DNA of 64,000 nt from Candidatus Sericytochromatia bacterium (GCA_046328015.1 JAXLXH010000001.1:2546350-2610349), one strand, 5' to 3'. Shown: positions 6,261 through 36,809, numbered from the stretch's first letter. Translations and numbers: made by a program. The notes: generated from the letters alone by a model not told the origin.

Positions 6261-6420
6261 CTAATTTTATTGATAATTTAAAATCAAGAGCCAGTTCCTT
6301 ATAAACTATCTTTTTTTGATAGACCTGAAGTTCATATTGGTTGAATGATGTTAATGTTTCACCTTTTCAATAACTTTAATAGCTTATGCTTTATATAGTT
6401 GGAGAAAAAATTAAGAGCAT
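6261..6420 (+). pseudogene. collapsed remnant of a paralogue of the glycine-zipper gene at 7865..8254
   Basis: 6261-6287 matches 7898-7926 ('taattttattgataatttaaaatcaa'), then joins directly to a match of 8034-8100 ('gagccagttccttataaa...tttgatagacc.gaagttc.tattgg') and 8215-8245 ('agcttatgctttatatagttgg'). Internal deletions remove the Gly-rich core and the frame is destroyed. Confidence 0.55.
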
Positions 6421-6437
6421 TTTTTATTTACAGATAA

Positions 6438-7445
6438 TTATTTTATATTGTTTATAAATTTTATTATAAGAGGCATAATTTTTTTATTTAGAGGCAAGTT
6501 AGGATTAATATAGGTTTTTAGATTTTCTGATACATCAATTGGTGCATCTTTCAATATATGATTCATATTTTCTATTATTTCTATTTTTGAATTTTTATTT
6601 GATGAATTTAGTTCTATTGCATTAGCAACACTTACTTGTAAATCTGTTGTGCCTTGAATAATTTGAATATCACAATTAAGATTTTTTATCTCTTTTGCAG
6701 GAGAATATTTTAGCCATGAAATTAAATAATTTTGACTTTTTGTCGCAAATACAAATTTTAATGTAGGATCTTTTATATCATTAACAAGTTTACCTTCTTT
6801 AAGATTTTTTATTATATAATTTAATTCTTCTTGATCAATATTAGGTTTTTTTAATTGTTCTAATAATACTTCACCAGCTTCTTTTCCCAAACCTGCTATA
6901 GATACAAACCCATTTACTTTTTCTTTTTCTGCACTAATTATACTTATTAAAGAACCTTCACTATGACCTAATAAAATTATTTTATTAAATCTTTTATCAT
7001 TTTTAAAAAATTTTATAATTGAAATAAGATCATTAATTCCGTCTTCTAAAGTTATATTTGATAAATTAAAATTATTTATTTTTTCAGGGTGAAGATACCT
7101 TTTATCAAATCTAAAAGAGGCTATTTTATCTTTGGCTAGTTCTTGAGATATATATTTATATGAATTAGTATTTAAGTTTATTTTTAAATCATTTCCATCT
7201 CTATTAATTGAACCAGAGCCAGGTACTATTAAAGCTATAGTTCCATTAGTAAAATTATTTGGTAAATTTAAAGTACCTAATATTTTGCCATCTTTTATAT
7301 TTATTTCTAATTCTTTTTCAACATATTCAATATTATTAGATATAAAAGTATCTTTTGATTTTGAATTATCAATATTTGCAAAAGCTTGGTTGAAACTAAT
7401 TAATAAAAAAGAAAAAAATATTAAATGTAATTTTTTTAAATACAT
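6438..7445 (-). CDS. secreted alpha/beta-hydrolase (serine hydrolase)
   Basis: 'LLGHSEGSLI' nucleophile elbow (GxSxG). Signal peptide 'MYLKKLHLIFFSFLLISFNQAFA'. The ORF-track start at 7478 is probably an N-terminal over-extension. Confidence 0.65.
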   Translation of the reverse strand: MYLKKLHLIFFSFLLISFNQAFANIDNSKSKDTFISNNIEYVEKELEINIKDGKILGTLNLPNNFTNGTIALIVPGSGSINRDGNDLKINLNTNSYKYISQELAKDKIASFRFDKRYLHPEKINNFNLSNITLEDGINDLISIIKFFKNDKRFNKIILLGHSEGSLISIISAEKEKVNGFVSIAGLGKEAGEVLLEQLKKPNIDQEELNYIIKNLKEGKLVNDIKDPTLKFVFATKSQNYLISWLKYSPAKEIKNLNCDIQIIQGTTDLQVSVANAIELNSSNKNSKIEIIENMNHILKDAPIDVSENLKTYINPNLPLNKKIMPLIIKFINNIK

Positions 7446-7608
7446 AAATTTTCCAATAAATACAATAAAAAATATCAATAATAATATGATATTAAATTTA
7501 TAAATAATATCTTTGTTTATTAAAAATTAATAGATTATCCTATTTTATATCTATTCCCATTTTTTTAGCATACAAGTTTATAATTATCTATACTTAAAAT
7601 TATTATAA

Positions 7609-7757
7609 ACACACACTTTGTCGTTCCGTAAGATCCTGAATCAAGTTCAGGATGACTAGGGAATCTAGTGTGTTTTTCTTATTTTAAACCTATAAAAAGT
7701 TACTTAGATCCTGAATCAATACTGAATCAAGTTCAGCATGACTTGAGGATGACTATA
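7609..7757. repeat. pair of small palindromic elements carrying the 'gatcctgaatcaagttcaggatgact' hairpin (related to repeat family C)
   Basis: 'cctgaatcaagttcagg' hairpin occurs twice (about 7632 and 7720). The first copy is bracketed by acacact/agtgtgt inverted ends. Confidence 0.5.
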
Positions 7758-7864: not shown

Positions 7865-8254
7865 ATGATAAATGCAATTCCTAATTCAAATCCAATAAGT
7901 AATTTTATTGATAATTTAAAATCAAAACCTATTTCTAATAATAATTATACTGCTGTATCAACTTCTTATAAATCAGATGCTTTTACTTTAAATACTAATA
8001 TTACAAAACCTATTCCTACAGATCCTCCTTATCAAGAGCCAGTTCCTTATAAACCTTCTTTTTTTGATAGACCCGAAGTTCGTATTGGTGGTATGATGTT
8101 AGGTGCAGGTGCTGTTGGTGGTGGAATTGGATACGCTGTTGGTTCTGCTTTTGGCAGAGCTAGCTTAGGTACAGCAATAGGTACAGGTGTAGGAGTTACT
8201 GCTCCAATAGCTTTATTAGCTTATGCTTTATATAGTTGGGGTAAAAATAACTAA
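7865..8254 (+). CDS. small membrane protein with C-terminal glycine-zipper (GxxxG-rich) hydrophobic segment and Asn/Pro-rich N-terminus
   Basis: '[23 protein letters not shown]...[22 protein letters not shown]' resembles Gly-zipper_2TM-type segments (established family knowledge). No signal peptide. Confidence 0.5.
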
Positions 8255-9288
8255 GAATATTTCTCTTCAAATAATAATGCTATTTTTACTAAAAATAATA
8301 AAACTGGTACTTCTACTAAAGGTCCAATAACACTTGCAAAAGCCGAACCAGAATTAATTCCAAAAACGGCAATTGATACAGCCAAACCAAGCTCAAAGTT
8401 ATTACCTGCTGCTGTAAAAGCCATAGCAACAGCTTTTTTATAATTAGTTCCCATTTTTATAGTTAAATAAAAAGTTAGGAAAAACATAATAGCAAAATAT
8501 ATACTTAAAGGTATGGCTATACGAATAACATCAAAAGGAATAGTTAGAATTAGATTGCCTTTTAAACTAAACATTACAAAAATGGTAAATAAAAGTGCAA
8601 TTAATGTAAAGGGGCTAATAATAGGGACATATTTTTCTTTAAACCATTTTTCACCTTTAGTTCTAATTAGAAAATATCTAGATGTAAATCCCATTAAAAA
8701 AGGAATTCCTAAATAGATAAAAACAGATTCGGCTACTTGTTTCATTGTTATAGCTACTTCAAATCCTTTTATTCCAAAAAATGGAGGTAAAATAGTTAGA
8801 AAAAACCAAGCATATACAGAATAAAATAAAACTTGGAAAATACTATTAAAAGCAACAAATGAAGCTGCTAAAGTATTATCTCCTTTAGCTAAATCAATCC
8901 AAACTACAACCATAGCAATACAAGGAGCAATTCCCATTAACATCATACCAGTCATATATTCAGGTTTATCTGGTAAAAATAAAATAGCTAAACTAAACAT
9001 TAAAAGTGGAGCTAAGATCCAAACTAGAAAAAATAATAAACTTATAACTTTTATATTTTTAAATACTTTAGTAATTTCAGTATAATTAACTTTTGCTAAT
9101 GGTGGATACATCATAATAATAAGCCCAATAGCAATAGGGATATTTGTGGTTCCAGATTGAAACTTATTCCAAAAAGAAGCTAAAGAAGGTAAAAAATAGC
9201 CTAATATTACTCCCAAAAACATTGCTGAAAAAATCCAAACAGTTAAATATCTATCTAAAAAAGAAAGTTTTTTTGTTAACTCAGACAT
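8251..9288 (-). CDS. acr3: arsenite efflux permease, ACR3 family
   Basis: N-terminus '[13 protein letters not shown]' matches the conserved ACR3/ArsB(YqcL) signature. Polytopic hydrophobic protein. Lies in the ars cluster. Confidence 0.85.
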
Positions 9289-9297
9289 AATTAATAC

Positions 9298-9720
9298 CTA
9301 TTCAAGTTCACTATTATTTTCTAAGGCTCTCTTTAGTATATCCAAACGGTTTTTTATTTGATTTCTTATTTCCCTAAATAAATTCATTTGCTCTTCATCA
9401 GATAAAGAAGGGTTTGCAGGATCAGTTAAAGCCCAATTTAATTTTTTCGTTTTTCCTAAAAAAGTAGGGCAAACTTCTTCGGCACATAAAGTTATAACTA
9501 AATCAATACTATTAGGTTTAATACTTTCAACAGATTTTGATTCTTGTTTACTGATATCAATATCTAATTCAGCTAAAGCTTTTATTGCATAGGGATTAAC
9601 AAATGATGGCTTAGATCCTGCACTTTGAATATGATAATTATTTCCCAAAATATTTTTAGCTAATCCTTCTGCCATCTGACTACGTGCAGAATTTGCTACA
9701 CATAAAAATAGAATATTCAT
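9298..9720 (-). CDS. arsC: arsenate reductase, LMW-PTP (thioredoxin-coupled) type
   Basis: '[16 protein letters not shown]' CX5R P-loop at the N-terminus and distal Cys 'TLCAEEVCP', as in Bacillus/Staphylococcus ArsC. Confidence 0.85.
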
Positions 9721-9756
9721 TTTATTCTCCTTTAGTCTTTATTTTTATTAGATAAT

Positions 9757-9869
9757 ACGGGGGTGTCTAAAAAGTGTGCGTTAATTATAACGCCCATACT
9801 AAAACACTGGCTTTCACCCTAGTCTTTCGTAAAAAAAAGACCTAGAAAAAGCCTTTTTGGACACACCCG
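9757..9869. repeat. family-B-like MITE with terminal inverted repeats (gggtgtctaaaaag ... ctttttggacacaccc)
   Basis: GC-rich element in the AT-rich arsI-arsC spacer. The ends form a perfect inverted repeat of about 14 bp. Related to the 14081 and 22174 copies ('ttttacgaaa' core). Confidence 0.55.
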
Positions 9870-9948
9870 TTTCAGGGGTACGGGAGCAGAGCCACCCATC
9901 CCTTCCTCCTGCGGGGTTGATAACCCGTAGGAAGTCTTAAATTCATTT
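9870..9948. repeat. family-A GC-rich palindromic element (REP/RPE-like), copy 1
   Basis: 'tttcaggggtacggg...cccttcctcctgcggggttgataacccgtaggaagtcttaaattcatt' shares core and terminus with the copies at 12679 and 63459. Confidence 0.75.
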
Positions 9949-10068
9949 ATACTTTATGAACTAGTTTACAATTTATTTGCAAACTAATCCATATTTAGTA
10001 TAATTTTAATTGAATCATTTAAACTTATGTTAGTTGGGTAAAACCCTCTAACAAAGTATTTTATTATT

Positions 10069-10539
10069 TTAAGAACAACATTTAACTTTTTTGGTTAAAC
10101 TTTCTTTTTCATTTGTAGGGCAACAAGCAGAAACATCTTCTGGTTTACTAGTTTCTAACATATCATCTAATAAAACATAAACTTCCCATTTATTTCCATC
10201 AGGATCCATTGCCCAAACTTTATCTTGAAGTGCATAACAGCAAGTAGTATTTTTTTCTTCTAAAGTTAATAAACCTGCTTGTTTTAATCTTAAAACTCCT
10301 TTCTCTACCTCTTCTTTACTAGAAACTTGTATGCCTAAATGACTCAAAGTTCCTTTACCTTGTTCTATATTAGCTTCATTTAAGGCTAGTTTTAAAGGTG
10401 GATTTTGCAAATCAAAATTGGCATATCCTTTACGAGTTTTATGTACTTTTTCACCAAAAAAAGCCTCATAAAATTTAATAGCATTCTCTATGTTAGATAC
10501 ATTAAGAGAAACATGTGTTTTTGCAATTGTACTTGTCAT
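10069..10539 (-). CDS. arsI: ArsI-like C-As lyase (VOC/glyoxalase-fold dioxygenase) with vicinal Cys pair
   Basis: Glyoxalase/bleomycin-resistance-type fold in an ars operon. Vicinal Cys 'TCCYA' in the position where ArsI binds trivalent organoarsenicals, plus a Cys-rich C-terminal tail (ACCP...KCCS). Start is likely at M8 (10539), abutting the arsR stop. Confidence 0.6.
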   Translation of the reverse strand: MTSTIAKTHVSLNVSNIENAIKFYEAFFGEKVHKTRKGYANFDLQNPPLKLALNEANIEQGKGTLSHLGIQVSSKEEVEKGVLRLKQAGLLTLEEKNTTCCYALQDKVWAMDPDGNKWEVYVLLDDMLETSKPEDVSACCPTNEKESLTKKVKCCS

Positions 10540-10898
10540 TTTTTTATACCTCCACAACAAGGACTAATAATTTTTGATAGAAATTTTGAAAGTTGAGAAA
10601 CTTTTTCTTTATTAATAGAATAAAGCATATTTTTACCTTTACGTTCGACATTTATAAGCCCTGCATAACGTAACTCTTTTAGATGATGTGACATAGTGGA
10701 TGTAATATTATTTTCACCAGTTATTGTGCAACATATATCACCTACTGTAATACCACAAACATTTCTAATATTATTTTCGTCATCTAAAGCGAAAGAATCA
10801 CAACAAGAAGCAAGATATTCAAATATTTTTAATCTTGACGGTTCTCCTAACGCTTTTAGTAAAACAGCCATTTCTTTTATTTCTAATTCATTACTCAT
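10536..10898 (-). CDS. arsR: ArsR/SmtB-family metalloregulator with multiple Cys pairs
   Basis: Winged-HTH 'PSRLKIFEYLAS...MSHHLKELRYAGLI' typical of ArsR. Cys pairs ASCC, DICC and a C-terminal PCCGG are possible As(III)/MAs(III) sites. Confidence 0.75.
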   Translation of the reverse strand: MSNELEIKEMAVLLKALGEPSRLKIFEYLASCCDSFALDDENNIRNVCGITVGDICCTITGENNITSTMSHHLKELRYAGLINVERKGKNMLYSINKEKVSQLSKFLSKIISPCCGGIKK

Positions 10899-10996
10899 TT
10901 CTATACTTTCATATTTTTATAACTATAGAAATATTAGAGTATAAAATATAAATTGTCAATGTTTTTTATAAAAATATTTTTACTAAAACGGATATA

Positions 10997-11851
10997 TTAA
11001 TCAAAAACATCAGATGGTTTAAGTGGCGTATCTACATACATATCCAAAGTAATACTAGTAGAAGCATGACCTAAATATTTAGATATACCTTTAATACTTT
11101 TCCCTTCTTGATGTTTTATGGTAGCAAAAGAATGTCTTAAAGTATGAGGATGAACATCTTTTAGCAGTATTTCTTGTCCATATTTATGTATTTCAGCATG
11201 AACATATCTTCTAGAAAAAGGTTCTCCATTTTTATTTATAAATAAATAATCTTTTGATTTATAAGCATTTTTTATTCTTTTTAATAATTCATCTGTTAAA
11301 TATATGGTTCTTTCTTTTCTACCTTTACCAACAACTTTAAAATAATGGAAACCTTGAGATAATTTAGAATTTTTTAATCTTAAGCTTAATAACTCACTAA
11401 CTCTCAAGCCACTAATAGCTAAAGTTTCAATTATTAAGGAGATTTTTTTAGGTGTTTTTTCTATCAAAATATCAATCTCTTCTTTATTTAAAGTATCACC
11501 TTCATAAATAGCTTTATCTATTTTAAACCCCTTTAATTCTTCTTTAAAAAACTCATTTAACATGCTAATAAACATATAACTATCAGATTCTTTGGGTAAA
11601 GTTTTTTTTATGCCCAATTTTAAAGCTTGTTTTTTTACATTTAAAGTTTGAGGACTATAATCTTGTTTTAATAACCACTGCCAAAAAATAGCTAAATTTT
11701 CTCTGGTTAGGGGTAAATTATTATCTTTTAGGTAATTATTAAATTGCTTTATATGGCAATCATAGTTTTTATCATTAATAAAAACCATACCTTCTAATGA
11801 GTTATTATTATTTACTTTTTCTAAAGTATTATCAGATAATATCAAATCCAT
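10997..11851 (-). CDS. tyrosine recombinase (XerD-like / phage-integrase family)
   Basis: C-terminal catalytic box 'HPHTLRHSFAT...LGHASTSITLDMYVD' (R-H-R-Y residues). N-terminal SAM-like core-binding domain. Confidence 0.8.
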   Translation of the reverse strand: MDLILSDNTLEKVNNNNSLEGMVFINDKNYDCHIKQFNNYLKDNNLPLTRENLAIFWQWLLKQDYSPQTLNVKKQALKLGIKKTLPKESDSYMFISMLNEFFKEELKGFKIDKAIYEGDTLNKEEIDILIEKTPKKISLIIETLAISGLRVSELLSLRLKNSKLSQGFHYFKVVGKGRKERTIYLTDELLKRIKNAYKSKDYLFINKNGEPFSRRYVHAEIHKYGQEILLKDVHPHTLRHSFATIKHQEGKSIKGISKYLGHASTSITLDMYVDTPLKPSDVFD

Positions 11852-11855
11852 ATTT

Positions 11856-12806
11856 TTATTCGGTTACAAATATTACTTTCTTCTCTAAAAACTGAGAATT
11901 AAGCTCTTTTTCATATTCTTGAGCATCAAGTTTTTCTAAATCTTTTGCCTTAATATCAAAATAATTTTTAGCAAATTTTTTATTAAAATCTATTTTAATC
12001 ATTTCTTTTATTCTTACAAGAGATTCTTTAAAAACATTATCATCATATTCATAACGAATATTTTCTATTTTTAGTGGAAAATTTAATTTTTTAGAAAACC
12101 AAATATTTATTTTATCAATATATTTACTTTCGCTAAAATATTCTGTTTTGGGGTATATTTTTATGCGTTCTATGTTAAAAACTTCGCAATCATAACCTTT
12201 AAATTTTTCAGTATAAATTTTTTTATGTTTTATATTTTTTAAAAAATTATAAAGCTTTTTGTTATTTTCAAACATTTCATAATCATAAATATTTTCTATA
12301 GCAAAATCAAAAACTTTGGTATCCTTAGTTAAATTTTTATATTCCATACCAAAATCATTATATTTATCTAAAAAACCGTTAAAAGAATAAAAAATATTTT
12401 TATCTTTATCAATAATAATATAATTTCTAGTATTATCATTACCTAAAGTTGTTATTTTTATTTTATTTTTTATAGTGCTATAAACTTCTTTTTGTCCATA
12501 AAAACCATGGTCTTTTAATATTTCAAGTAAATTAGTTTCAGTAATATTTTCTTTTAATTGGGGATAAACCTTAGTATCATAAGTTATTTCAATATTTTCT
12601 GGTAAAGCATAAGCTTTTTGAAAATTTAAAATAATTAAACTAGTAAAACCAAATAAAAAATATTTTATGATTACTAGAGAAGACCTCAGAGCTCCGCTCT
12701 GGGGTTTCAGGGGGTACGGGGGCATAGCCCCCGATCCCTTCCTCCTACGGGGGATCACCCCCGTAGGAGGTCTTAAATTCATTATTAAAGAATTATTTAA
12801 AACCAC
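11856..12806 (-). CDS. hypothetical secreted protein; N-terminal about 40 codons are read through a family-A repeat
   Basis: Hydrophobic signal-like segment 'IIKYFLFGFTSLIILNFQKAYA'. The only in-frame ATG upstream (MPPYPLKPQ...) lies inside the repeat at 12679-12784. No family assignment. Confidence 0.45.
   Translation of the reverse strand: MVLNNSLIMNLRPPTGVIPRRRKGSGAMPPYPLKPQSGALRSSLVIIKYFLFGFTSLIILNFQKAYALPENIEITYDTKVYPQLKENITETNLLEILKDHGFYGQKEVYSTIKNKIKITTLGNDNTRNYIIIDKDKNIFYSFNGFLDKYNDFGMEYKNLTKDTKVFDFAIENIYDYEMFENNKKLYNFLKNIKHKKIYTEKFKGYDCEVFNIERIKIYPKTEYFSESKYIDKINIWFSKKLNFPLKIENIRYEYDDNVFKESLVRIKEMIKIDFNKKFAKNYFDIKAKDLEKLDAQEYEKELNSQFLEKKVIFVTE
12679..12784. repeat. family-A GC-rich palindromic element, copy 2
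   Basis: 'gagctccgctctggggtttcagggggtacgggggcatagcccccgatcccttcctcctacgggggatcacccccgtaggaggtcttaaattcatt' contains the perfect palindrome cctacgggggatcacccccgtagg and gacctc/gaggtc ends. Confidence 0.8.
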
Positions 12807-13951
12807 GATTTAAAAGAATTCCAAGCTGATGAAATACCATTTGATATTTTACCTACAGTATTTCCAACTGCATTAGCTAAACGATCTACTTGTTTTTCTG
12901 CAAAAGCAACAGCCTTACCAACTCCTTCTTTAGCTTTATCGGCTACATAAGTTAAAGCTTTACCTGTTTTTTCTAAGGCAACTCCAACTGTTTTAGAAAC
13001 TTTTGCTACCACTACTTGTCCTGTAGCTTTTACGGTATTTACTACACCACCTTTTTTGAAGTTCTCATCAGCTTTAGCTTCCATTTTATTTCCATAATCT
13101 TGAGCTTTTTTACCAGCTTTTTCAGCTCCTTCGCCTAAAGTTTTCACTCCTTTTATCGCAGCTCCTGCCACTATAGATGTTGCGGCAATAATAGTTTGTC
13201 CTTGAGCTGCTACAGATGAAGCCATTACTCCAGCTACTTTTCCATCTTTTTTAGAAACATTCTCATAAGTTTGTTTTACTTTTGTGCCTACATGTTGTAC
13301 GGCACTTTCATTTTCACCTTTTGCATCTTTAAACCAACCAAATTCCTTAGTTGCTTTATCTCCATAATGAGCTATCTCAGCCCCAGCATAAACAGCTATA
13401 CCAATAGGGCCACTAACCACAGCTGAAGTAACTAAAGCACCACCTTTTACTACATTCCAACCACCATCATAAGTATCTCCTTTTGCTATTTGATAAATTC
13501 CTTTACCTATTTGTAGTGAACCGCCAGCTACGCCTAAAACAGTTAAACCTTTTGATAATCCAGAGGCTAATTTATCATGATTAGCTATAACTAATCTTCC
13601 AATAGAACTTTTTTCAACAAATTGAACAACTTTATTTTCAGTAAGAAAAGTGGCAACATTTTTTACTGTTTTACTTTCCATTACAGCATTTTTTATTTTA
13701 TCTATTTTTCCAGATGCTTCTGCTGGTTCAAAAGTTCCTTGAGCAATCTTTTTTACTTTAGAAGTTGTTTCTATAGCTGTATTACCATTACTAACAACGC
13801 TTTTAGCTGTTTTTACTCCTTGAGAACTTACATCAAATACTTCTTGTGTTTTATCAGCAGATTTTAATGCTTTTTGAGATGCTGTTTTTACATTTCCACC
13901 AAAAGTACTTCCAACTGGAGTTTGAGAAAAAGAAAGAGTTCCACCAGACAT
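12797..13951 (-). CDS. Gly/Ala/Lys-rich protein with central glycine-zipper hydrophobic region and amphipathic-helix repeats (possible membrane-active protein)
   Basis: No signal peptide. 'GLTVLGVAGGSLQIGKGIYQIAKG...GGALVTSAVVSGPIGIAVYAGAEIAHYG' hydrophobic Gly-zipper segment, then KAxxKxxxGVGKAVA-like repeats. Overlaps the start of the downstream ORF by 10 nt, so the two are probably co-transcribed. Confidence 0.5.
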   Translation of the reverse strand: MSGGTLSFSQTPVGSTFGGNVKTASQKALKSADKTQEVFDVSSQGVKTAKSVVSNGNTAIETTSKVKKIAQGTFEPAEASGKIDKIKNAVMESKTVKNVATFLTENKVVQFVEKSSIGRLVIANHDKLASGLSKGLTVLGVAGGSLQIGKGIYQIAKGDTYDGGWNVVKGGALVTSAVVSGPIGIAVYAGAEIAHYGDKATKEFGWFKDAKGENESAVQHVGTKVKQTYENVSKKDGKVAGVMASSVAAQGQTIIAATSIVAGAAIKGVKTLGEGAEKAGKKAQDYGNKMEAKADENFKKGGVVNTVKATGQVVVAKVSKTVGVALEKTGKALTYVADKAKEGVGKAVAFAEKQVDRLANAVGNTVGKISNGISSAWNSFKSWF

Positions 13952-14080
13952 AAAAAACCCTCAAAGATATAAAATAAAATTCCTTATTAATAATAGTAAA
14001 AATTAAAAAAATATTTCTTCATTTAAAGGTTTTTTAACAATTAAATTTTATATAATTCCTGATGGTTTCAAAAAAACATC

Positions 14081-14174
14081 ATTTTTTACGAAAAATATTG
14101 GTGTAAAACCCAGTATTTTCGTAGAGGAAAAGCACTGTTTTGTCCTCTCCGAGACCCCCAAGGTCTTAATTTTA
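14081..14174. repeat. family-B MITE copy
   Basis: 'ttttacgaaaaatattggtgtaaaacccagtattttcgtagaggaaaagcactgttttg...ggtcttaatttt' matches 22190-22283 almost base for base in the core. Confidence 0.75.
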
Positions 14175-14999
14175 AAAAGAGTCAATTTTTTCTATATCTT
14201 CTTTTTCCAGATTAATAGATTTATAAGAAGAAATAGCTAAGTTTATATTTTCTTTTTTAGTGGAACTAATAATAGGTATAATATTTGAACCTTTACTTTT
14301 TATCCATAAAAGAGTAATAATTTCAGAGCTTGTATTATATTTTTTTGCCAATGATTGTAATAAATTATCTAATAAAGTATTATTTCCTTTATGATAAATT
14401 CCATAAGCAAAATATAAAATATTGTTGTCCTTACAATAATCTAATAAACCTGTTTTTAAGTCTTTCTGAAAAAAAGGATTAAGTTTATTTTGTATAGAGT
14501 AAATACCACTAATTTTATCTAAATTTTGAAATTCATATAAATCTATTAAATCTATATTTGATAAGCCAAAATTTAAAATTTTACCTTTTTCTTTTAATTC
14601 TTTAATAGTATTTAAAATTATATTTTTAGCTACTTTTTTATCATAAACATGTAATTGATAAAGAAAAAGCTTTTTTAAATTCAAATTTTCTAAGCTTTTA
14701 TTGCAACAATAATTCAAAAATTCAGGTCTATTATCTATAACAGATTGATTGTTTTTTATATAATAACCGCCTTTAGTAGCAATAAATAATTCTTTTAATT
14801 TTTCACCTAATAAGCTTTCTAAAAATCTTTCATTACCACCAATATCATCATAATTTTTACCATAATAATATGCGGTATCTATAATATTTATATCCGAATC
14901 TAAAACGTGTTTTATAAGCTCTTTACTTTTTAGAGTATCTTCTTGAAGCTTTTTTGATAAAATAAAGCTACCATAAGCAAGATTAGAAATATTATTCAT
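14172..14999 (-). CDS. aldo/keto reductase-family oxidoreductase
   Basis: 'IIDTAYYYG' resembles the AKR 'IDTAxxYG' active-site region. Length and pattern are consistent with an AKR. Confidence 0.55.
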   Translation of the reverse strand: MNNISNLAYGSFILSKKLQEDTLKSKELIKHVLDSDINIIDTAYYYGKNYDDIGGNERFLESLLGEKLKELFIATKGGYYIKNNQSVIDNRPEFLNYCCNKSLENLNLKKLFLYQLHVYDKKVAKNIILNTIKELKEKGKILNFGLSNIDLIDLYEFQNLDKISGIYSIQNKLNPFFQKDLKTGLLDYCKDNNILYFAYGIYHKGNNTLLDNLLQSLAKKYNTSSEIITLLWIKSKGSNIIPIISSTKKENINLAISSYKSINLEKEDIEKIDSF

Positions 15000-22036: not shown

Positions 22037-22173
22037 AATTAACTAAACTAATATCTTATATAAATTAAACTTTTTTAGATAATTTAAGCAGATGATTTAT
22101 AAAAACACAAGTATAACTTAGTTAAAAGTTAGGTGATGTTTTTTATCTTTTCTACCGATATTTTTAAGATTTT

Positions 22174-22283
22174 GGGGTTGTCCAAAAAGACAATTTTTAC
22201 GAAAAACATTGGGAGAAAACCCAGTATTTTAGTAGGGGAAAAGCACTGCTTTGCCCGTTTTTGGACACCCCCGTAGGTGTGAG
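22174..22283. repeat. family-B MITE copy with inverted termini (ggttgtccaaaaag...gtttttggacaccc)
   Basis: Core identical to 14081-14150. The termini are inverted repeats. Confidence 0.75.
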
Positions 22284-23372: not shown

Positions 23373-23426
23373 TTTTTTATTCCTCTTTTTAATATAATAA
23401 ACTTTTTTTATAATTTTTCTTAAAAA

Positions 23427-23460
23427 GGACAAAGCTGTGCTTTTACCCTACGAAAATACT
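23427..23460. repeat. partial family-B repeat (reverse orientation)
   Basis: 'ggacaaagctgtgcttttaccctacgaaaatact' is the reverse complement of the B core 'agtattttcgtag.ggaaaagcac.g.tttgtcc'. Confidence 0.6.
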
Positions 23461-24855
23461 TTATTTTTTCAAAATACCATCTAAAACCCTTCTAATTTCA
23501 TTAGTATCTTTCATATAATCAAAAATTTTATTATATTCTTTATTATCAAGATACTGTTTAAAAACTAAAAGATTTTTTATATATTCATCTAAAGCTGTAG
23601 AAACATTTTCCATATTTTGTTCAAAAATAGGTGTCCACATAGCAGGAGAACTTTTTGCTAATCTAACTGTAGATTCAAAACCGCTACCAGCTAAATTAAA
23701 AATAGTAGTTTCATCTTTTTCTTTTTCTAAAACTGTTGCACCCAAAGCAAAAGAGCTTATATGAGATAAATGAGAAACATATGCTATATGTAAATCATGA
23801 GCTTTAGAATCCATATATAAAATTTTCATACCTAAAACTTGATATATTTTTTCAACTTCTTTCACTGCAAAATCATAGCTTTTTTCTTGATCACAGATAA
23901 TACCTGTTTTTTTTGAAAATAAACCAGAAAAAGCGGCTTTAGGTCCAGAATGTTCTGTACCAGCAATAGGATGTCCTGCTACAAAGTTTTTTCTATTTTT
24001 ATGATTTTCAACAGCAAGACAAATATTTTCTTTTGTCGAGCCTACATCAGTAACTATAGTAGTTTCATTTATTTTATCTAAAACATTTTGTAAAACTTTT
24101 TCTGTTGCATTAACAGGTATAGAAACTAGTACTAAATCAGAGCTTTTTACAGCCTCATCTAGTTCTTTTATTTCATCTACAATATTTAATTCCAAAGCTA
24201 ATTTACAATTTTCTTTATTATTATCTACACCTATTATTTTATCTATATAATTAACTTTTTTTAGATCTAAAGCTATAGAACCACCTATTAAACCAAGACC
24301 AATAACTGTAATAGTTTTTAATTTTTCTTTTCTAGGCATGTTTTCTAAAATACTATTGATAAAAGGAGCTTTTGCATTTGTATATTCTTCTCTTATTAAG
24401 CCTTTACTTTCTAAATCTAATTTTAATTTTTCATATTCTTCAGCTTTATTTGGATTATTATTCATATAATCTCTAAAAAAAATAGTTTTATTATAATCTT
24501 CAGAGTTTAATTCAAACATATGTATATGAAATTTAACTATTTCACCTATAGTTCTAAAATAGTGTCTTTTTTCTATACCAAATTCTCCCATGAATTCATA
24601 ACCAATTTTTTTTAATCCTTCTATACAGTTAAAACCATCATCAAATTTAGTTATTCCTATACATATATCTATAATTGGCTTTGCGGAAATATTTTTTATA
24701 GAGGTACTTCCAACATGATCTATGGTTTTTATATAAGGAGCGATTTCTCTTAGAATTTTATTTTTTTCATTTTCAAATTCTTTTATCCATAGTTCATTAT
24801 GAGGAAATAATTTTATTTCACCTTTTTTTAAACCTATTATATTTTCTTTATTCAT
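23461..24855 (-). CDS. tyrA: GrpB-domain / prephenate dehydrogenase (TyrA) fusion
   Basis: N-terminal GrpB/UPF0157-like domain 'FPHNELW...IDHVGSTSI'. Central Rossmann 'ITVIGLGLIGGSIALDL' and the TyrA catalytic region. Confidence 0.75.
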   Translation of the reverse strand: MNKENIIGLKKGEIKLFPHNELWIKEFENEKNKILREIAPYIKTIDHVGSTSIKNISAKPIIDICIGITKFDDGFNCIEGLKKIGYEFMGEFGIEKRHYFRTIGEIVKFHIHMFELNSEDYNKTIFFRDYMNNNPNKAEEYEKLKLDLESKGLIREEYTNAKAPFINSILENMPRKEKLKTITVIGLGLIGGSIALDLKKVNYIDKIIGVDNNKENCKLALELNIVDEIKELDEAVKSSDLVLVSIPVNATEKVLQNVLDKINETTIVTDVGSTKENICLAVENHKNRKNFVAGHPIAGTEHSGPKAAFSGLFSKKTGIICDQEKSYDFAVKEVEKIYQVLGMKILYMDSKAHDLHIAYVSHLSHISSFALGATVLEKEKDETTIFNLAGSGFESTVRLAKSSPAMWTPIFEQNMENVSTALDEYIKNLLVFKQYLDNKEYNKIFDYMKDTNEIRRVLDGILKK

Positions 24856-24867
24856 ATTTTTATTTTT

Positions 24868-24958
24868 CCTTGTCAGAATCAGGATTCACAAGATTTTAGG
24901 ATTAACAGGATTATTTTTTATTAGAACAACCCAATCCTAAAAATCTTGATTCAGAAAT
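24868..24958. repeat. family-C MITE with terminal inverted repeats (tctgaatcaggatt...aatcctaaaaatcttgattcaga)
   Basis: Termini are inverted and match the 25343-25446 copy. Lies between the tyrA start and the GxxExxY stop. Confidence 0.75.
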
Positions 24959-25329
24959 TATTTTTTACCTTTAAAAATTTTTTTATATTGTAAACTACTA
25001 GAACCAAAATTTATTAATAATCCTATTGGAAAATCATAAGCCACAACATAATTTTTTGCTTGTGCTAAGTGTATATCTTCCAAATTTATTAAAGCTTTTA
25101 ATTCAACTACAACACAATTTTCTACGATAAAATCTGCTCTTCTTGTTCCTACATTTATACCATCATAAAAAATAGGTTGCTCTTTTTCTTTTTCAAAAGA
25201 TAATCCAGCACGTTCAAACTCAATACTTAAACATCTTTGATAAATAACTTCTTGAAAGCCGTTACCCAAAGTATTATGTATTTTCATTGCTCCACCAATA
25301 ATTTTATATGTTATTTCTTCTAATTCCAT
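24958..25329 (-). CDS. GxxExxY-family protein (PD-(D/E)XK-like), bracketed by two family-C MITEs inside the aromatic operon
   Basis: 'KIIGGAMKIHNTLGNGFQEVIYQ' carries the GxxExxY motif. 123 aa. Confidence 0.7.
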   Translation of the reverse strand: MELEEITYKIIGGAMKIHNTLGNGFQEVIYQRCLSIEFERAGLSFEKEKEQPIFYDGINVGTRRADFIVENCVVVELKALINLEDIHLAQAKNYVVAYDFPIGLLINFGSSSLQYKKIFKGKK

Positions 25330-25342
25330 TTTATTTTCCTTT

Positions 25343-25446
25343 GTCTGAATCAGGATTCACTGGATTTTAGGATTAGCAGGATTATTTTGCATTAGATTAA
25401 CCCAATCCTGTAAATCTTTTAATCCTGAAAATCCTGATTCAGACAA
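25343..25446. repeat. family-C MITE copy
   Basis: 'tgtctgaatcaggattcactggattttaggatt...aatcctgaaaatcctgattcagaca' has perfect terminal inverted repeats. Overlaps the aminotransferase stop. Confidence 0.75.
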
Positions 25447-30971: not shown

Positions 30972-33029
30972 TTATTCTGAAATAGAATTCATAATTTTAT
31001 CTTTCATTTTTTTAATTTTTTCATTATCATCTTTTTTATTGGTTAAATCTACTCCCAATTTTTCACTTAAGATTAAAGAGATAAGAGCTTCAAAGGCATT
31101 AAAACTACTATTATTTTCAGCATTTCCTCCCATACTAATAATAGTTTTAGGAACAATATCTATATTACCTTGTTTGATAGCATCAGTAAAACGAACCATT
31201 ATATCTTGCATAATTTGATATTTAGCTCCACCATAAGCATTAACTTGTTCTTCCATTGCTATAGCTTTGCCTATACCTACTTGAGCTTCTTTTTCAGCTT
31301 CAGCTTCAGCTATTTTTTTAATTTTTTCTGATTCTCCATCAGCTAAAATTCTTATTTTTTCAGCCTCACCATTTGCAAGGGTTCTTATTTTCTCTGCTTC
31401 GGCAGAAGCTAATATTTTTATTTTTTCAGCTTCTTGTGTTGCTTTTTTATATTCAGCTTTACCTTTATTTTCTTCTACTTCTATATCTATAGATGAAGCT
31501 GTAAGATTTTTTTGTTGTTCAGCTTTGGCTTCAGATTCTCTTAATTCCCTTTCTTTAGTAGCAGCTCTTTGTTGAACTTCATAGGTTTTTACTTTTTCTT
31601 CTGCAATTTGTCTTTCTCTTAGTTGAGTAAGTATAGTTTCTATTTTAGTATCATTAGGAGAACTGCTAGGAGTACCTATTAAAACTTCTTCTAATTCTAA
31701 ATTATATCTATCAAATTTTTCAGCCATTTCTGTATGAGCTATATCTTGTAATTCTCTTCTATTATGAATTAACTCAATTAAAGTTTTAGTTTGACCAATA
31801 TTTTTGAAATAAGAACTTATCATAGGATCTAAAGATTGTTCAACTAATTTTGTAATATCTCCAAATCTTTGTATAACTAAGGGAGCTTTTTTATAATCTA
31901 TATGTATTACTATACTAAGAGGTAGTAAAGGTTCAAAAGCATCTTTGGTTATAAGAGAAACTTCTTTTAAGTTTTCATCGTATTTATGTGTTCCAAATTG
32001 AGTACTAATCCATTTTAAAATAATATTGGTAGTTGGAACTGGAATTATTTTACCAGAATAAGTGTTAAAAGCATATTTACCAGGCATTAAAGGTTCACTC
32101 CAAACACCACTATAACCTTTTTCTACTAATTCTCCATGAGTGTAAGCATCCCCTGATTGATCTGTTCCTTTTTCTCCGGTATAAGATACAACTACTCCTA
32201 CATAACCAACATCAATTATAGTTTTATTTATTAGTTCAACAGTAGCAAAAAGTCTATTAATATAATAAGTTCCATCTACTAAAACGTGATGTTGTCTTCC
32301 TCTAAAACCTCCAGCTAATAAAAATTTTTCTATATCTTGAAAATTATTATGATAAGTAGCTTGGTTATTAGGATTATCTCCAACAATAGGAGCTATAATT
32401 TGTCCATTTGGTAAAGATTTACCATCATGAGTAGTTAATATTCCAATTTTATCTTCATTTCCTCTTATTACTATAGGATAAAAAGCATCTCTAGCTAATA
32501 ATACTTTATGCATGTTATCTACAGCATCTTTTTCTGTTGTATTTTCTAGAGGAAAATAATAAACTCTATTCGATGTAAATATTATAAATTGAGCAAGATT
32601 AAAAGCATAAGTTCCTTCTCTTACGATTTCTCTTTGTTGTCCTTTTTGTCCACCATTATATAAAAAACCTCTAACATCTTGAAAGTTATTTCCTTTACTT
32701 ACAACTTTAGCTAAAGTTTGTGTTGGATCTAAAGGTTTTCCATCTCTTGCAAATACATATCCTATTTGTCCTTGTGGAATAGTAACAAGTGGTAAAATAT
32801 GTATTTTATACATAATAGGAGATCTAAAATGGATACCTCCTCTTAAAACTTCTGCTTGAATACCAGCTTCTCCATCTAAAGCTATAATTTTATCACTTAA
32901 AGAGCCTTTTGGTGACCACCATTTTTCTACAATTCCTATTTTATTGTTAGGTATAATTCTAAGTCCCATAATTTTTAAAACAATAAAACTTATACCTATA
33001 AAAGTAATTAAAAAAACTAAAAAATTCAT
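30972..33029 (-). CDS. flotillin / SPFH (band-7) family membrane protein, long form
   Basis: N-terminal TM, SPFH domain, C-terminal 'EAEKIR..ADGE.EKI' flotillin repeats and 'MGG' tail. No adjacent NfeD partner. Confidence 0.75.
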   Translation of the reverse strand: MNFLVFLITFIGISFIVLKIMGLRIIPNNKIGIVEKWWSPKGSLSDKIIALDGEAGIQAEVLRGGIHFRSPIMYKIHILPLVTIPQGQIGYVFARDGKPLDPTQTLAKVVSKGNNFQDVRGFLYNGGQKGQQREIVREGTYAFNLAQFIIFTSNRVYYFPLENTTEKDAVDNMHKVLLARDAFYPIVIRGNEDKIGILTTHDGKSLPNGQIIAPIVGDNPNNQATYHNNFQDIEKFLLAGGFRGRQHHVLVDGTYYINRLFATVELINKTIIDVGYVGVVVSYTGEKGTDQSGDAYTHGELVEKGYSGVWSEPLMPGKYAFNTYSGKIIPVPTTNIILKWISTQFGTHKYDENLKEVSLITKDAFEPLLPLSIVIHIDYKKAPLVIQRFGDITKLVEQSLDPMISSYFKNIGQTKTLIELIHNRRELQDIAHTEMAEKFDRYNLELEEVLIGTPSSSPNDTKIETILTQLRERQIAEEKVKTYEVQQRAATKERELRESEAKAEQQKNLTASSIDIEVEENKGKAEYKKATQEAEKIKILASAEAEKIRTLANGEAEKIRILADGESEKIKKIAEAEAEKEAQVGIGKAIAMEEQVNAYGGAKYQIMQDIMVRFTDAIKQGNIDIVPKTIISMGGNAENNSSFNAFEALISLILSEKLGVDLTNKKDDNEKIKKMKDKIMNSISE

Positions 33030-33594
33030 AAATTTTCTACCTCATAAACAATATAGATGATTTTTAGACAAAACAAATAAATTAGTTAATAAAAACTATA
33101 TTTATAACTATATTTATTTTTATTCGAAATGATTACATATAACTTGATTTGAAGATTCTAAAAAGTTTAAACTACTTTAGGATCTTTATTATTAATGCAT
33201 GATTTTGTTTTAAATTAACTCAGGACTAATATTGATTTTAAGTGTAATTTCATAAAAAGATTTTTTATTATACCTACATTAGGTATATAATTTTTTTTAG
33301 AGCCCTTAATCTTTTTGTAGCTAATAATAGCTTTCATTTTTTTACCTATACTTAGTTGTTACTATGTTGAACAACTTATAATTATTATATCACTTTAAAA
33401 AAAAATTTAAATAGTTTTTTATTTGTTTTTTACTAATATAAATAATAATATATTTATTTATATTAAAAATTTAGCTGTTAATCTTAAAGATAAAAAAATA
33501 AGCTTAATTTATTAATAATATAAGATATTTTTTTACTTATTTAAAATGTAAATTTTTATATACAATCAATTTAAGACATTATTTAAGTTTAATT

Positions 33595-35247
33595 TTATTT
33601 TTTATCTTTAATTAATTTTTCAGTTTGCCCAGTTCTCATATATAAGTTAATTAGGTTACTATAGGCTTTACTAAAATTTGGATCTAATTTTAAAGCTTCA
33701 TTATAAAACTTTTCTGCTCTTTTATCATTTTTATTCATTTCATAACAAAAACCTATATTATTATAAGCAGTTGCATTTTTTTTAATATTTAGAGCCTTTT
33801 CTGAAAATTTTATACAATTTAAAGCATCTTTATTTTCTAAATAAGCAAAACCTAAATTAATAAAATCTGATTCATTTTTAGAACCTAATTCTATACTTTT
33901 TAAATAATAAGGAATTGATTCTTTATATTTATTTTGATTTATATAATTATCTCCTATTAAAGAGGTAATATTATAATTTTTTGAATCAAGTTTTAAAGCT
34001 TTTATTAAATAGGTTTCACTATCTCTAAATTGAGAAAATCTTTTATATAAATCAGCTATTTCTAAATAAATTGAAGTATTTTTATTCTTATTAGATAATT
34101 CTTTTTCATTTAAAAGATATTTTTCATAAAAAAATTCAGCTTTATCAAGGTTATTTGTTACGTTATAAAAATAAGCTAATTCATAATTTATTTTATTTGT
34201 TTTTTCTTTGGATAATAAATTTTTAGTTATTTTGTTAAATATTTGATCATTATTTAAAATAGAAAATAGATATAATTTTAAAAGTTCTTTATTATTATCA
34301 AATTTTATTAGCTCAAGCCCTTTTTTTATTAATGAAGTATTTTTACTTAGTTTATTAGTTATATCATAATATTTTTTACTATTTTCTTTATCATTAATTA
34401 AATAATAAAAAGAAGCTAGACAAAAATATCCATAAGGACTTTTGGGAAAAATATTAACAAATTCTTTCATATGATTTATAGCTTTATTTATATTGTTTTC
34501 TTCTAAATATATAAATGATATGTTATAAAAAGCTTCAAACGATTTTTTATTTATTTTTATTAGTTTTTCATAATATTGAATGGCTTGATTATTATTATTA
34601 TCCAATTGTTCTGAATAAGCTAAAAAAAGTAAAGCATTCTGGTTATCAGGATTATTTAAAAGTAATTCTTCAGACATTTTTTTGCAGAAAAATATATAAT
34701 TTTTATTTTTTAAATTACTTTCTTCTAAAAAAAATGAAATTAATTCTTCTAAATCTTTGGTATTATTTGATTTATTTAAAAAATTTTCAGCTGTTTTTAT
34801 AAATAAATCATTTGAATATAATTGATTTTCTACTTCTTTTAAAGATTTTATATTATTAATTACTTCATTATATTTTTTGTCTAATAAAAAAATTTGAGAT
34901 TTAATTAAATAAGCTTCTTTATTTTTTTTATTTAAACTGATACATTTATCTATAAATTTTAAAGCTTTATCGTATTCATTTTTTTCTAAATATATTCTAC
35001 CTATTTCTAAATTTGTATAATAATAAAATTCATTTATAAATTCTTCTTTTTTATTTGAATTTTTTTCTATAAGTCCAAATTTTAAAGGGAAAATATTTTT
35101 TTCTAAACTTTTTTCTAAATAGAATAAACATTTATTTTTTTCATTTAAGTTTTTATAGGCATTAGCTAAAATAAATAGTTCTATAGAATTAAGAGTTTCT
35201 TTTTTATTTTCTATTAAATCAATAGTTTTTTTGTAATAACCCATCAT
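33595..35247 (-). CDS. TPR-repeat protein; 5' region (35248..35590) appears frameshifted
   Basis: Multiple TPR-like 'A..Y.' repeats. Upstream in other frames there is a signal peptide (MNKKFILTLSSILFCFF at about 35590) and further TPR-like sequence, separated by at least 2 frame breaks. Confidence 0.6.
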   Translation of the reverse strand: MMGYYKKTIDLIENKKETLNSIELFILANAYKNLNEKNKCLFYLEKSLEKNIFPLKFGLIEKNSNKKEEFINEFYYYTNLEIGRIYLEKNEYDKALKFIDKCISLNKKNKEAYLIKSQIFLLDKKYNEVINNIKSLKEVENQLYSNDLFIKTAENFLNKSNNTKDLEELISFFLEESNLKNKNYIFFCKKMSEELLLNNPDNQNALLFLAYSEQLDNNNNQAIQYYEKLIKINKKSFEAFYNISFIYLEENNINKAINHMKEFVNIFPKSPYGYFCLASFYYLINDKENSKKYYDITNKLSKNTSLIKKGLELIKFDNNKELLKLYLFSILNNDQIFNKITKNLLSKEKTNKINYELAYFYNVTNNLDKAEFFYEKYLLNEKELSNKNKNTSIYLEIADLYKRFSQFRDSETYLIKALKLDSKNYNITSLIGDNYINQNKYKESIPYYLKSIELGSKNESDFINLGFAYLENKDALNCIKFSEKALNIKKNATAYNNIGFCYEMNKNDKRAEKFYNEALKLDPNFSKAYSNLINLYMRTGQTEKLIKDKK

Positions 35248-35689
35248 ATTTAATGAATTATAGTAATTAATTGGATATTCTAATTTTATATTATTATTAA
35301 TAGCTTTTTCAGAATAATATAAAGCTTTATTATATCTACTATTTTCAGAATAAGTTGTTTGCTAATTTTTCATAAATATCTTTATTATTTTTATTTTCAT
35401 TTAGAGTTTTTTCTAAATATTCTATAGAAGTATAATATTCTTCTTTTTCAAATAATTCTATACCTTTTATAATTATTTTCTGTTTTATTTTGAATATTTA
35501 TATTATTAGATTTTGAGTAGCTAATATTAGAATAATTAAAAAAACAAAATAAAATAGAACTTAAAGTTAAAATAAATTTTTTATTCATAATAAAACCAAA
35601 AAAAGATAATATAAAATTGTACTTTAATTTTAATATTTTTAAAAGTAATAAAATAGATTGAATAAAAATTCAATCTATTTAGTTTATAT

Positions 35690-35728: not shown

Positions 35729-35737
35729 TTATAGATT

Positions 35738-36809
<1,072 letters not shown>

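Follow-up and report, generated by a model that had tools for sequence, protein, structure and literature searches.

The window, as we call the whole 64-kb stretch of DNA that was analysed (24.5% GC), contains a dispersed, GC-rich repeat of ~130 nt with three hairpins, hereafter family A, which is present as three long copies (c1 to c3), one deleted copy (c4), and one fragment (c5). The same contig carries one more copy, separated from P0001 by ~600 protein accession numbers. Family A is probably a non-autonomous, MITE/REP-like dispersed repeat confined to this lineage; as a sequence family it is new, but it belongs to a familiar kind of small mobile repeat and does not amount to a new kind of system. 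Several copies are read in frame as part of host genes, and c2 holds the only ATGs from which the predicted secreted protein downstream of it would be made with its signal peptide. The host is a MAG that NCBI lists as Candidatus Sericytochromatia (genome 3.55 Mb, locus-tag prefix U0457), represented by a contig of 3,555,234 bp and proteins that include MFN8672570.1 and MFN8673168.1. An alternative genetic code was rejected in favor of the standard code, as table 4 gave no extra ORF length.

Evidence for the family came from similarity and from composition. An nhmmer profile built from c1, c2, and c3 matched c2 with E = 3e-44, c3 with E = 1.5e-40, and c1 (9870-9952, minus strand) with E = 2e-24, values that are circular for these three copies. 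Independent support was provided by pairwise similarity (88% over 42 nt, and 85% over 75 nt in BLASTN); the copies in the window were 74-88% alike. The cores of the copies have a GC content of 52-65%, compared to the 24.5% of the window, and when we counted 40-nt stretches with at least 57.5% GC, we found six in the window, three of which were family-A copies with peaks of 68-73%. The claim of the first-pass annotation that this is a genuine dispersed family of GC-rich palindromic repeats was confirmed. Beyond this genome, a three-block family-A DNA pattern yielded 0 matches in the genome, metagenome, and viral contig collections, and blastn of family A against plasmid and phage collections yielded nothing. 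A pattern made from the 3' tail had four matches on metagenome contigs, which we dismissed as chance, since they covered the AT-rich tail only, without the GC core. Family A and GC islands were absent from relatives' contigs (about 30 kb, 23-29% GC); no close relative of the host was found in any collection, and a related-locus search with RNase II gave none.

The best-preserved copy is c2 (12656-12789, minus strand), in which three hairpins are framed by AT-rich sequence, CTTTAATAATGAATTTAAGAC at the 5' end and TTCTCTAGTAATCATAAAAT as the 3' tail. Hairpin 1 (12741-12770, minus strand) is a perfect 13-bp stem, CCTCCTACGGGGG-TGAT-CCCCCGTAGGAGG, that includes both a GTAG/CTAC, paired in the stem, and a Shine-Dalgarno (SD)-like AGGAGG (12741-12746). 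It is followed by hairpin 2 (12709-12739, minus strand), with the core GGGGGC-TAT-GCCCCC, and by hairpin 3 (12679-12708, minus strand), CCAGAGC-GGA-GCTCTGAGG, which, with AAGACCTC near the 5' end of the copy, makes up an 8-bp subterminal inverted repeat, AAGACCTC/GAGGTCTT. The fold of c2 was predicted to be very stable on either strand, at -64.4 kcal/mol (z = -6.7) for its own strand and -72.9 kcal/mol (z = -8.2) for the opposite one. The copies had been described as containing perfect palindromes, which is true of c2, where 43 of 43 pairs are Watson-Crick, but not of c3 (31/43) or c1 (16/24). No notable promoter match was seen in c2, and when 9000-14500 was scanned for terminator-like sites, none fell in c2 or in the family-A parts of c1.

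We observed that c2 is read through in frame by ORF 11856-12806 (minus strand; NCBI P0001, 289 amino acids, U0457_10895). Two ATGs lie upstream of a signal-peptide-like segment in this ORF, and both are in c2. The outer ATG (12780-12782, minus strand; residue 9 of the stop-to-stop ORF) is part of the conserved 5' end of the repeat, AATGAATTTAAGA, and has no SD ahead of it. The inner ATG (12723-12725, minus strand; residue 28), which is the start chosen in the NCBI annotation, sits in the loop and stem of hairpin 2, with the AGGAGG 15 nt upstream, buried in the stem of hairpin 1. The signal-peptide-like segment, IIKYFLFGFTSLIILNFQKAYA/LPEN, comes after the repeat, no ATG, GTG, or TTG occurs between the two, and the next ATG of the ORF is at about residue 155. 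Because only two ATGs are available upstream, and both are within the element, a start inside c2 would be needed to keep the signal peptide; as judged from the sequence, either of the two may be the one used. The first-pass annotation, which had c2 read in frame and contributing the only upstream Met, was supported on both points, with two such ATGs inside the repeat. Its suggestion that the repeat supplies the start agrees with both sequence and annotation, and it is from these that we infer it.

Rather unlikely is the alternative that this start donation is an annotation artefact, in which the element would amount to no more than 5'-UTR or intergenic sequence, and ORF 11856-12806 as well as a TetR gene discussed below would start downstream at ATA, ATC, or ATT or be pseudogenes. 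Gene callers extend an ORF as far as no stop intervenes, and GC-rich sequence inserted into a 24.5% GC genome is naturally free of stops, with two to three of the six reading frames open across the family-A insert; the burial of the inner ATG and its AGGAGG in very stable predicted hairpins and the missing SD of the outer ATG point the same way. A homolog, P0002 (55% identity over 273 amino acids), has an ordinary start with no repeat upstream and begins MKKNFVYILILVLLNIFIPKNAYS/LPDN, and an ATA (12666-12668) is found where the native Met would be expected (IKYFLF in ORF 11856-12806 versus MKKNF in P0002). However, ATA and ATC are very poor bacterial start codons, and the stretch from the element to the signal peptide offers none of the better ones, ATG, GTG, or TTG. 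The identity of the gene body to P0002 furthermore makes a dead gene unlikely, and the same arrangement is encountered again in the TetR gene.

In that gene, the first ~42 residues of the protein (P0003, MFN8673168.1) are encoded by the family-A copy located elsewhere on the contig. Upon searching for homologs with a HMMER profile of all 242 columns, i.e., the whole TetR protein, we found the N-terminal extension in none of the 150 best TetR homologs, which are 155-262 amino acids long and whose alignments start at position ~33-58 of P0003. Since the homologs align only past the N-terminus of P0003, the element-coded extension is an addition. The TetR copy reads KNK-[insert]-KNK, and homolog P0124 has a single KNK. 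A further case of in-frame reading is c4 (58338-58417, plus strand), a two-piece match (58338-58387 and 58389-58417; E = 1e-3 and 3e-4) that retains the 5' end, a degenerate hairpin 1, and the 3' tail, with the middle deleted. It forms residues 39-64, NEFKNSYGLSTKLEAAEVFSNKNKIK, of the HisKA_2 kinase ORF 58233-59726; an alignment of the kinase N-terminus, meant to show c4 as an insertion, was ambiguous, as this region was not reliably alignable. A doubtful fragment, c5 (58085-58161, plus strand), which comprises hairpin 3 and tail and has weak nhmmer matches (E = 0.16 and 1.1), is located ~70 nt ahead of the kinase start. Of the partial copies previously reported near 58 kb, the one at 58.3 kb is real and larger than the 3' piece listed before, but the 58085-58161 fragment is weak.

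In-frame reading was thus found for three of the seven known copies (c2, c4, and the TetR copy), in two different frames (f2 for c2 in ORF 11856-12806, f1 for c4 in the kinase and for the TetR copy) and with no single conserved peptide. Family A has no coding capacity of its own, its open frames being stop-free read-through only, and it would be tolerated in frame on account of the scarcity of stop codons in GC-rich sequence.

The copy c1 is interrupted by a second repeat. Its 5' part (9869-9952, minus strand), with decayed hairpins 1 and 2, is followed by a nested family-B element of 111 nt (9758-9868, minus strand; ends GGGTGTGTCCAAAAAG ... CTTTTTAGACACCCCCG) that takes the place of hairpin 3, after which the family-A sequence resumes as the 3' tail, TATTATCTAATAAAAATAAAG (9730-9757, minus strand). 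The copy at 9870-9948 of the earlier description is real, but it carries a second family nested within it. The two families have CCCCCGTAGG in common, and the single terminator-like site of the 9000-14500 scan is inside the family-B element. The end of the c1 tail is 16 nt upstream of the ATG of arsC, with an SD in between; c1 resides within an ars operon, with an ArsI-like gene on one side and arsC on the other. The direct repeats c1 and c2 are spaced by 2.8 kb and lie on either side of the ArsI-like gene, ArsR, a Xer-like tyrosine recombinase (10997-11851), and ORF 11856, a location that would fit recombination sites (att/attC/dif-like) of that recombinase, bracketing a mobile module. We regard this as highly improbable, given that other copies lie 45-50 kb and ~600 accession numbers away with no recombinase nearby, that c1 splits a normal ars operon, that c1 and c2 are only 85% identical without an identical core, and that the recombinase scores 62 bits against an integron-integrase cut-off of 265 and 98 bits against a Xer cut-off of 335. 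An identity as integron attC/att sites was rejected on the grounds of the dispersion over >50 kb and the lack of an identical core.

Decay was also apparent in c3 (63449-63583, plus strand), which is of full length and whose 5' end adjoins the SD of a divergent RNase II gene (ATG 63436-63438, minus strand). Its fold has z = -1.7/-1.1, far from the values of c2, and relative to c2 this copy has 20 differences from G/C to A/T and 8 the other way; G/C-to-A/T changes make up most of the decay in c1 as well. Of its 12 non-Watson-Crick pairs, 8 are unable to pair at all. We found no strand asymmetry of G-U versus C-A pairs (5 versus 3), and compensatory pairs among the three sequences were not above shuffles (74/500). 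The copies look unconstrained, because pairing is lost, strand asymmetry is absent, and compensatory pairs stay at the shuffle level. RNA function, sought via covariation and strand asymmetry, was set aside as not significant with three sequences.

These observations bear on the idea that family A represents cis-acting structured RNA leaders, i.e., regulatory 5'-UTR elements, and not a selfish repeat. Four copies, c1, c2, c4, and the TetR copy, are sense-oriented and sit at gene starts or shortly ahead of them, which, together with the strong predicted structure of c2, would be in line with such leaders. We nevertheless judge this very unlikely: c3 is antisense to the neighbouring RNase II gene, the downstream genes are unrelated in function (arsC, secreted protein, TetR regulator, and kinase), the older copies lose their pairing without strand asymmetry, and c1 is interrupted by another repeat. 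Rfam covariance models moreover gave nothing at gathering thresholds in the whole window, with sub-threshold chance matches only around c2. No tRNA or tmRNA was found in the window.

In keeping with a MITE, family A combines a small size (~130 nt, with MITEs being shorter than about 300-500 bp), the lack of a transposase gene, and dispersed copies. A comparison of filled and empty sites, made with distant homologs only, gave P0002 and the 150 TetR homologs as sequences without the element. Against a MITE/REP-like reading, the classical hallmarks of a MITE were not clearly seen. The inverted repeat spans just 8 bp and is subterminal, lying ~15-20 nt inside AT-rich conserved ends, and is perfect in c2 but decayed in c3; a clean target-site duplication was not found among the few copies. 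An AAnAATnAA occurs at both ends; within a copy, the two ends agree at 6-8 of the 9 positions, yet in these few copies the ends are alike between copies too. Transposase family matches were absent among the ORFs of the 64-kb window, as were a parent IS and a Y1/RAYT gene.

The same selfish repeat could, with a rather low probability, be a REP/BIME-like mosaic or IS200/IS605-type element that moved as single-stranded DNA by a Y1 (HUH)/RAYT enzyme recognising subterminal hairpins. Such elements lack true terminal inverted repeats and target-site duplications, and family A has hairpins near both ends with neither feature clean. The motif CCCCGTAGG (at most one mismatch) was seen 7 times versus 0.44 expected, with 6 of the 7 in families A and B; in B2, a GTAG comes immediately after the long stem, and GTAG-tagged REPs have been reported in Cyanobacteria (PMC3733652). 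The modular build, with a family-B unit replacing hairpin 3 of c1 and modules missing in c4, can be read likewise. Yet the GTAG of family A is paired within the stem of hairpin 1, leaving no unpaired terminal tag, and the window has no Y1/RAYT gene.

We favor the reading of family A as a MITE/REP-like repeat that would spread in trans, presumably with an enzyme whose gene lies in another part of the 3.55-Mb genome. Once inserted, copies would decay under the AT mutation bias of the host; c2, still perfect, would be young, whereas c1 and c3 would be older and c4 and c5 would be remnants. Copies at or just inside the 5' ends of genes would stay open, as their GC-rich cores have few stop codons, and might then be carried along as N-terminal or internal coding sequence.

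All good family-A copies adjoin translation starts. Only about 9% of intergenic positions are located 25 nt or less upstream of a crudely called start, and purely random insertion does not predict such start-adjoining copies, a point against the favored reading. We can conceive, as a decidedly speculative reading, that families A and B belong, as modules, to a single transposition system that recognises hairpins and prefers A/T-rich SD-to-ATG spacers, with some copies exapted. If this were true, insertion would repeatedly rewrite translation starts, the element with its own ATG and AGGAGG would be a portable donor of start codons and N-terminal extensions, and the secreted protein U0457_10895 and the TetR regulator would be exapted beyond mere tolerance. 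Should the association with starts hold genome-wide, family A would usefully illustrate how target-site preference shapes the 5' ends of genes.

Start codons and N-termini that are called within GC-rich repeats of this MAG, and probably also of related AT-rich genomes, should be treated cautiously, which applies to U0457_10895, the TetR protein MFN8673168.1, and the kinase 58233-59726. With family A, a GC-rich palindromic repeat family is added from a lineage that is related to cyanobacteria, non-photosynthetic, and poorly sampled, and it provides a small natural case of stop-free GC-rich inserts turning into coding sequence in an AT-rich genome.

Such behavior has parallels in several known systems. 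The GC clusters of yeast mitochondria are GC-rich, palindromic, and mobile in an extremely AT-rich genome, with in-frame insertions in VAR1; they are organellar and much shorter, and their likeness to family A is one of composition and behavior only. With REP/BIME sequences and GTAG-tagged REPs with RAYT, family A shares GC-rich stem-loops, the GTAG, module mosaics, and intergenic sites within operons (PMC3733652). It falls outside the definition of the GTAG superfamily of REPs, which are single palindromes of 20-40 nt with a terminal, unpaired GTAG (PMC3733652), whereas the family-A unit is a three-hairpin unit of ~130 nt with a paired GTAG. Bacterial MITEs (Correia, RUP/BOX, ERIC, Nezha, and Anabaena MITEs) are likewise small, non-coding, and dispersed, with stable predicted hairpins, and they also share the nesting, the location at gene starts, and ORF fusions including 5' extensions (PMC10969869, PMC3184786); family A differs in having no clear terminal inverted repeats or target-site duplication and no sequence match in the collections searched. 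Rickettsia palindromic elements (RPEs), of about 105-150 nt, are palindromic as well and occur both between genes and in frame in unrelated genes, where an insertion contributes a peptide and leaves the gene functional (PMC10969869, PMC3184786). The likeness to RPE-style insertion noted in the first-pass annotation fits the recurrent in-frame behavior, but family A is probably not a member of the RPE family: it is set apart by its Sericytochromatia-labelled host, a GC content much higher than that of its genome, the use of two frames, and in-frame cases at or near N-termini. Genes fused in frame with small repeats are known from several repeat families (PMC10969869, PMC3184786), and such fusions are to be expected wherever GC-rich DNA is inserted into an AT-rich genome.

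In a window of 24.5% GC that reads with the standard genetic code (taking TGA as sense gives no gain), just six 40-nt stretches reach a GC content of at least 57.5%, and three of the six are reported copies of family A, which peak at 68-73% GC. We oriented every copy as the minus strand of c2, the best-preserved one, aligned the copies, and used the three long ones (c1 to c3) to make a profile that was run against the window. This search placed c2 at 12656-12789 (-; E = 3e-44), c3 at 63449-63583 (+; E = 1.5e-40) and c1 at 9870-9952 (-; E = 2e-24; 3′ tail apart at 9730-9757), E-values that are circular because the same three copies built the profile; independent support for the family comes from pairwise identities of 88% over 42 nt and 85% over 75 nt. 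A further copy, c4, appeared in two pieces at 58338-58387 and 58389-58417 (+; E = 1e-3 and 3e-4), and a weak fragment, c5, at 58085-58161 (E = 0.16 and 1.1). The coordinates of the first-pass annotation were thereby found to be essentially right, except that c4 is bigger and takes in the 5′ end of the element, that c1 is interrupted, and that c5 is doubtful.

A complete copy spans ~130 nt and consists, in order, of an AT-rich 5′ end (CTTTAATAATGAATTTAAGAC), hairpin 1 (CCTCCTACGGGGG-TGAT-CCCCCGTAGGAGG), hairpin 2 (core GGGGGC-TAT-GCCCCC), hairpin 3 (CCAGAGC-GGA-GCTCTGAGG) and an AT-rich 3′ tail (TTCTCTAATAAGAATAAAAT). Its 5′-proximal AAGACCTC and 3′-proximal GAGGTCTT make up a subterminal inverted repeat of 8 bp. 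RNA folding, which the first-pass annotation had proposed as a check, is predicted to be strong for c2 (-64 kcal/mol on one strand, z = -6.7; -73 on the other, z = -8.2) and weak for c3, which folds hardly better than its own shuffles (z = -1.7 and -1.1). On the c2 structure, Watson-Crick pairs are formed at 43/43 positions in c2, 31/43 in c3 and 16/24 in c1. Taking the three copies together, 86% of the cells are paired, versus ~48% with partners slid, a control that is biased toward structures taken from one of the sequences, as here. The three compensatory pairs among these copies do not exceed shuffles (74/500), and pairing has no strand asymmetry (five G-U versus three C-A). Relative to c2, c3 has changed from G/C to A/T at 20 positions and in the reverse direction at 8. 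The pattern is that of one fresh copy and older copies decaying under AT pressure, and not that of a structure kept by selection. Nor is family A likely to act as a terminator, as its sequence in c1 and c2 contains no terminator-like site.

In c1, a 111-nt element at 9758-9868 (ends GGGTGTGTCCAAAAAG...CTTTTTAGACACCCCCG) stands where hairpin 3 should be; it belongs to family B, another GC-rich palindromic repeat. This repeat, ~105-111 nt long, recurs at 22173-22277, with partial copies at 14073-14145 and 23426-23467, and has long-range ends GGGGKTGTCCAAAAAG...CTTTTTGGACACCCCC, followed in the copy B2 by GTAGG. Families A and B have in common the motif CCCCGTAGG (CCCCCGTAGG in the family-B description), which occurs seven times with at most one mismatch, versus 0.44 expected, six of these inside A or B repeats. 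Directly after the first partial family-B copy, a short stretch at 14146-14175 (reverse complement AAAATTAAGACCTTGGGGGTCTCGGAGAGGAC), not picked up by the family-A profile search of the window, resembles a family-A 5′ end with hairpin 1 after deletion.

The window holds other repeats and unusual segments as well. A third repeat (~87-110 nt, 87% identity) lies inverted at 7571-7657(+) and 61172-61258(-), 53 kb apart; both copies are intergenic and combine an AT-rich promoter-like part with a hairpin (arms ATCCTGAA/TTCAGGAT). Two 90-nt direct repeats (24858-24947 and 25329-25446; 87% identity), rich in CAGGATT/AATCCTG palindromes, flank a small ORF at ~24958-25330(-), and the second contains a 43-nt inverted repeat with itself. 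Segments 6283-6459 and 8031-8296 are duplicated (92% and 75% identity), the latter mostly in the C-terminal half of ORF 7865-8254(+), which is small and rich in Gly and Ala, a pattern pointing to local paralogs flanking ORF 6438-7526. In the SPFH/Band-7 domain ORF 30972-33041(-), a periodic repeat at 31290-31454 (at least four units, 61-71% identity) has a 33-nt period, implying an 11-residue protein repeat. The region 33000-40000 has 14-17% GC, and ~35.4-39.6 kb is free of ORFs of at least 150 aa, unusual beside ordinary housekeeping genes.

Copy c2 occupies the gap from the stop of ORF 12797-13951 to the body of ORF 11856-12806, a secreted-protein ORF with 100% identity to NCBI protein MFN8672570.1 (U0457_10895) of a Candidatus Sericytochromatia bacterium MAG. 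It is read in frame with this ORF, and the signal-peptide-like IIKYFLFGFTSLIILNFQKAYA/LPEN comes next; the sole other homolog, P0002 (55% identity), starts MKKNFVYILILVLLNIFIPKNAYS/LPDN and lacks an upstream repeat. No ATG, GTG or TTG occurs from c2 to the signal-peptide-like segment, so that the earlier claim that the repeat supplies the only upstream ATG is correct at the sequence level. The outer ATG (12780-12782) belongs to the conserved 5′ end of c2 (AATGAATTTAAGA) and lacks a Shine-Dalgarno (SD) sequence; the inner one (12723-12725), in hairpin 2, is the NCBI start, and the AGGAGG 15 nt ahead of it is in turn sequestered within hairpin 1. The start codon really used would, as we infer, be one of these. 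Four nucleotides after the ORF lies a co-oriented Xer-like tyrosine recombinase, directly followed downstream by an arsenic-resistance cluster (8251-11851, -) of ArsR, an ArsI/CadI-type enzyme, LMW-PTP ArsC and Acr3. That family A is a recombination site for this recombinase is unlikely, given that the copies are dispersed and lack an identical core, and that the recombinase scores far under family cut-offs.

A protein-database search with translations of the element's open frames yielded one further copy on the same contig, in the TetR regulator MFN8673168.1 (P0003), 598 accession numbers from MFN8672570.1. Its residues 1-42 (MKNKFKTSYWVSTPQEEGIGGYAPVPPETPEQSSEVFSNKNK) are element-coded, and the TetR_N domain begins at residue 47. 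The 150 best TetR homologs (155-262 aa) align from P0003 position ~33-58, at homolog residues 1-22 (one alignment begins at homolog residue 78), so that the N-terminal extension encoded by the element has been added; the top homolog begins MDHSKNKKYQSII, versus ...FSNKNKKYLKII in P0003. Copy c4 is read in frame as residues 39-64 of a HisKA_2/PAS kinase, whose nearest homolog is just 61% identical; over these residues the kinase homologs show gaps or resist alignment, which at most hints at an insertion. Since c2 is read in frame f2 and the TetR copy and c4 in f1, there is no single conserved family-A peptide, and the two to three of six frames free of stops are as expected for GC-rich sequence inside an AT-rich genome.

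Every well-preserved copy adjoins a translation start. Within the ars operon (ArsR, ArsI-like gene, c1, ArsC, Acr3), c1 ends 16 nt from the arsC ATG, and c3 adjoins the SD of RNase II. Because a position in non-repeat intergenic DNA has only a ~9% chance of falling in the 25 nt upstream of a start (starts crudely called), such adjacency of the three independently found copies (c1, c2 and c3) is unlikely by chance (roughly 0.18 cubed, either end counted), with the sample tiny and the TetR copy biased by its discovery through a protein search. The end repeats of family A resemble the genome's usual SD-to-ATG spacer (e.g., arsC GGAGAATAAAATGAAT), and a target preference for this spacer is a testable idea. 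A regulatory RNA leader is unlikely: the genes next to the copies are unrelated, c3 lies antisense to RNase II, older copies lose pairing, and Rfam gave no match.

These observations agree with a selfish, non-autonomous repeat of the MITE/REP type. Such an origin would account for dispersed copies of graded age without coding capacity, the strong hairpins of the youngest copy, the nesting of another repeat, deleted remnants, homologous genes elsewhere without the element, and confinement to one lineage. The classical hallmarks are less clear: the inverted repeat is short and subterminal, and AAnAATnAA direct repeats at both ends (6-8 of 9 positions identical within a copy, and similar between copies) may either belong to the element or have arisen as duplications of a preferred target site. 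None of the ORFs in the window matched a transposase family. Alternatively, the mover could reasonably be a single-strand transposase that recognises hairpins (RAYT or IS200/IS605-like), although family A departs from the definition of a REP, a 20-40 nt palindrome with unpaired GTAG.

A three-block DNA pattern fitting c1 to c3 had no match in genome, metagenome and viral contigs, collections without the source genome or close relatives; a 3′-tail pattern gave four matches, all by chance, and blastn found none in plasmids or phages. GC islands and family-A matches are likewise absent from ~30 kb of contigs (23-29% GC) of relatives. Family A matters mainly as an annotation caveat and as a modest illustration, from a lineage with little sampling, of N-termini that derive from a repeat. 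Internal, 3′ and 5′ ORF fusions are documented for Rickettsia palindromic elements (RPEs), BOX/RUP, BRE, ERIC-like repeats and Anabaena MITEs (PMC10969869; PMC3184786). The likeness to RPEs drawn in the first-pass annotation holds for behaviour and in-frame reading. Family A has no demonstrated membership in a named family, and the collections searched gave no match to its sequence. In composition it recalls the GC clusters of yeast mitochondria, and in behaviour its nearest counterparts are the RPEs, alongside MITEs that fuse with host ORFs.
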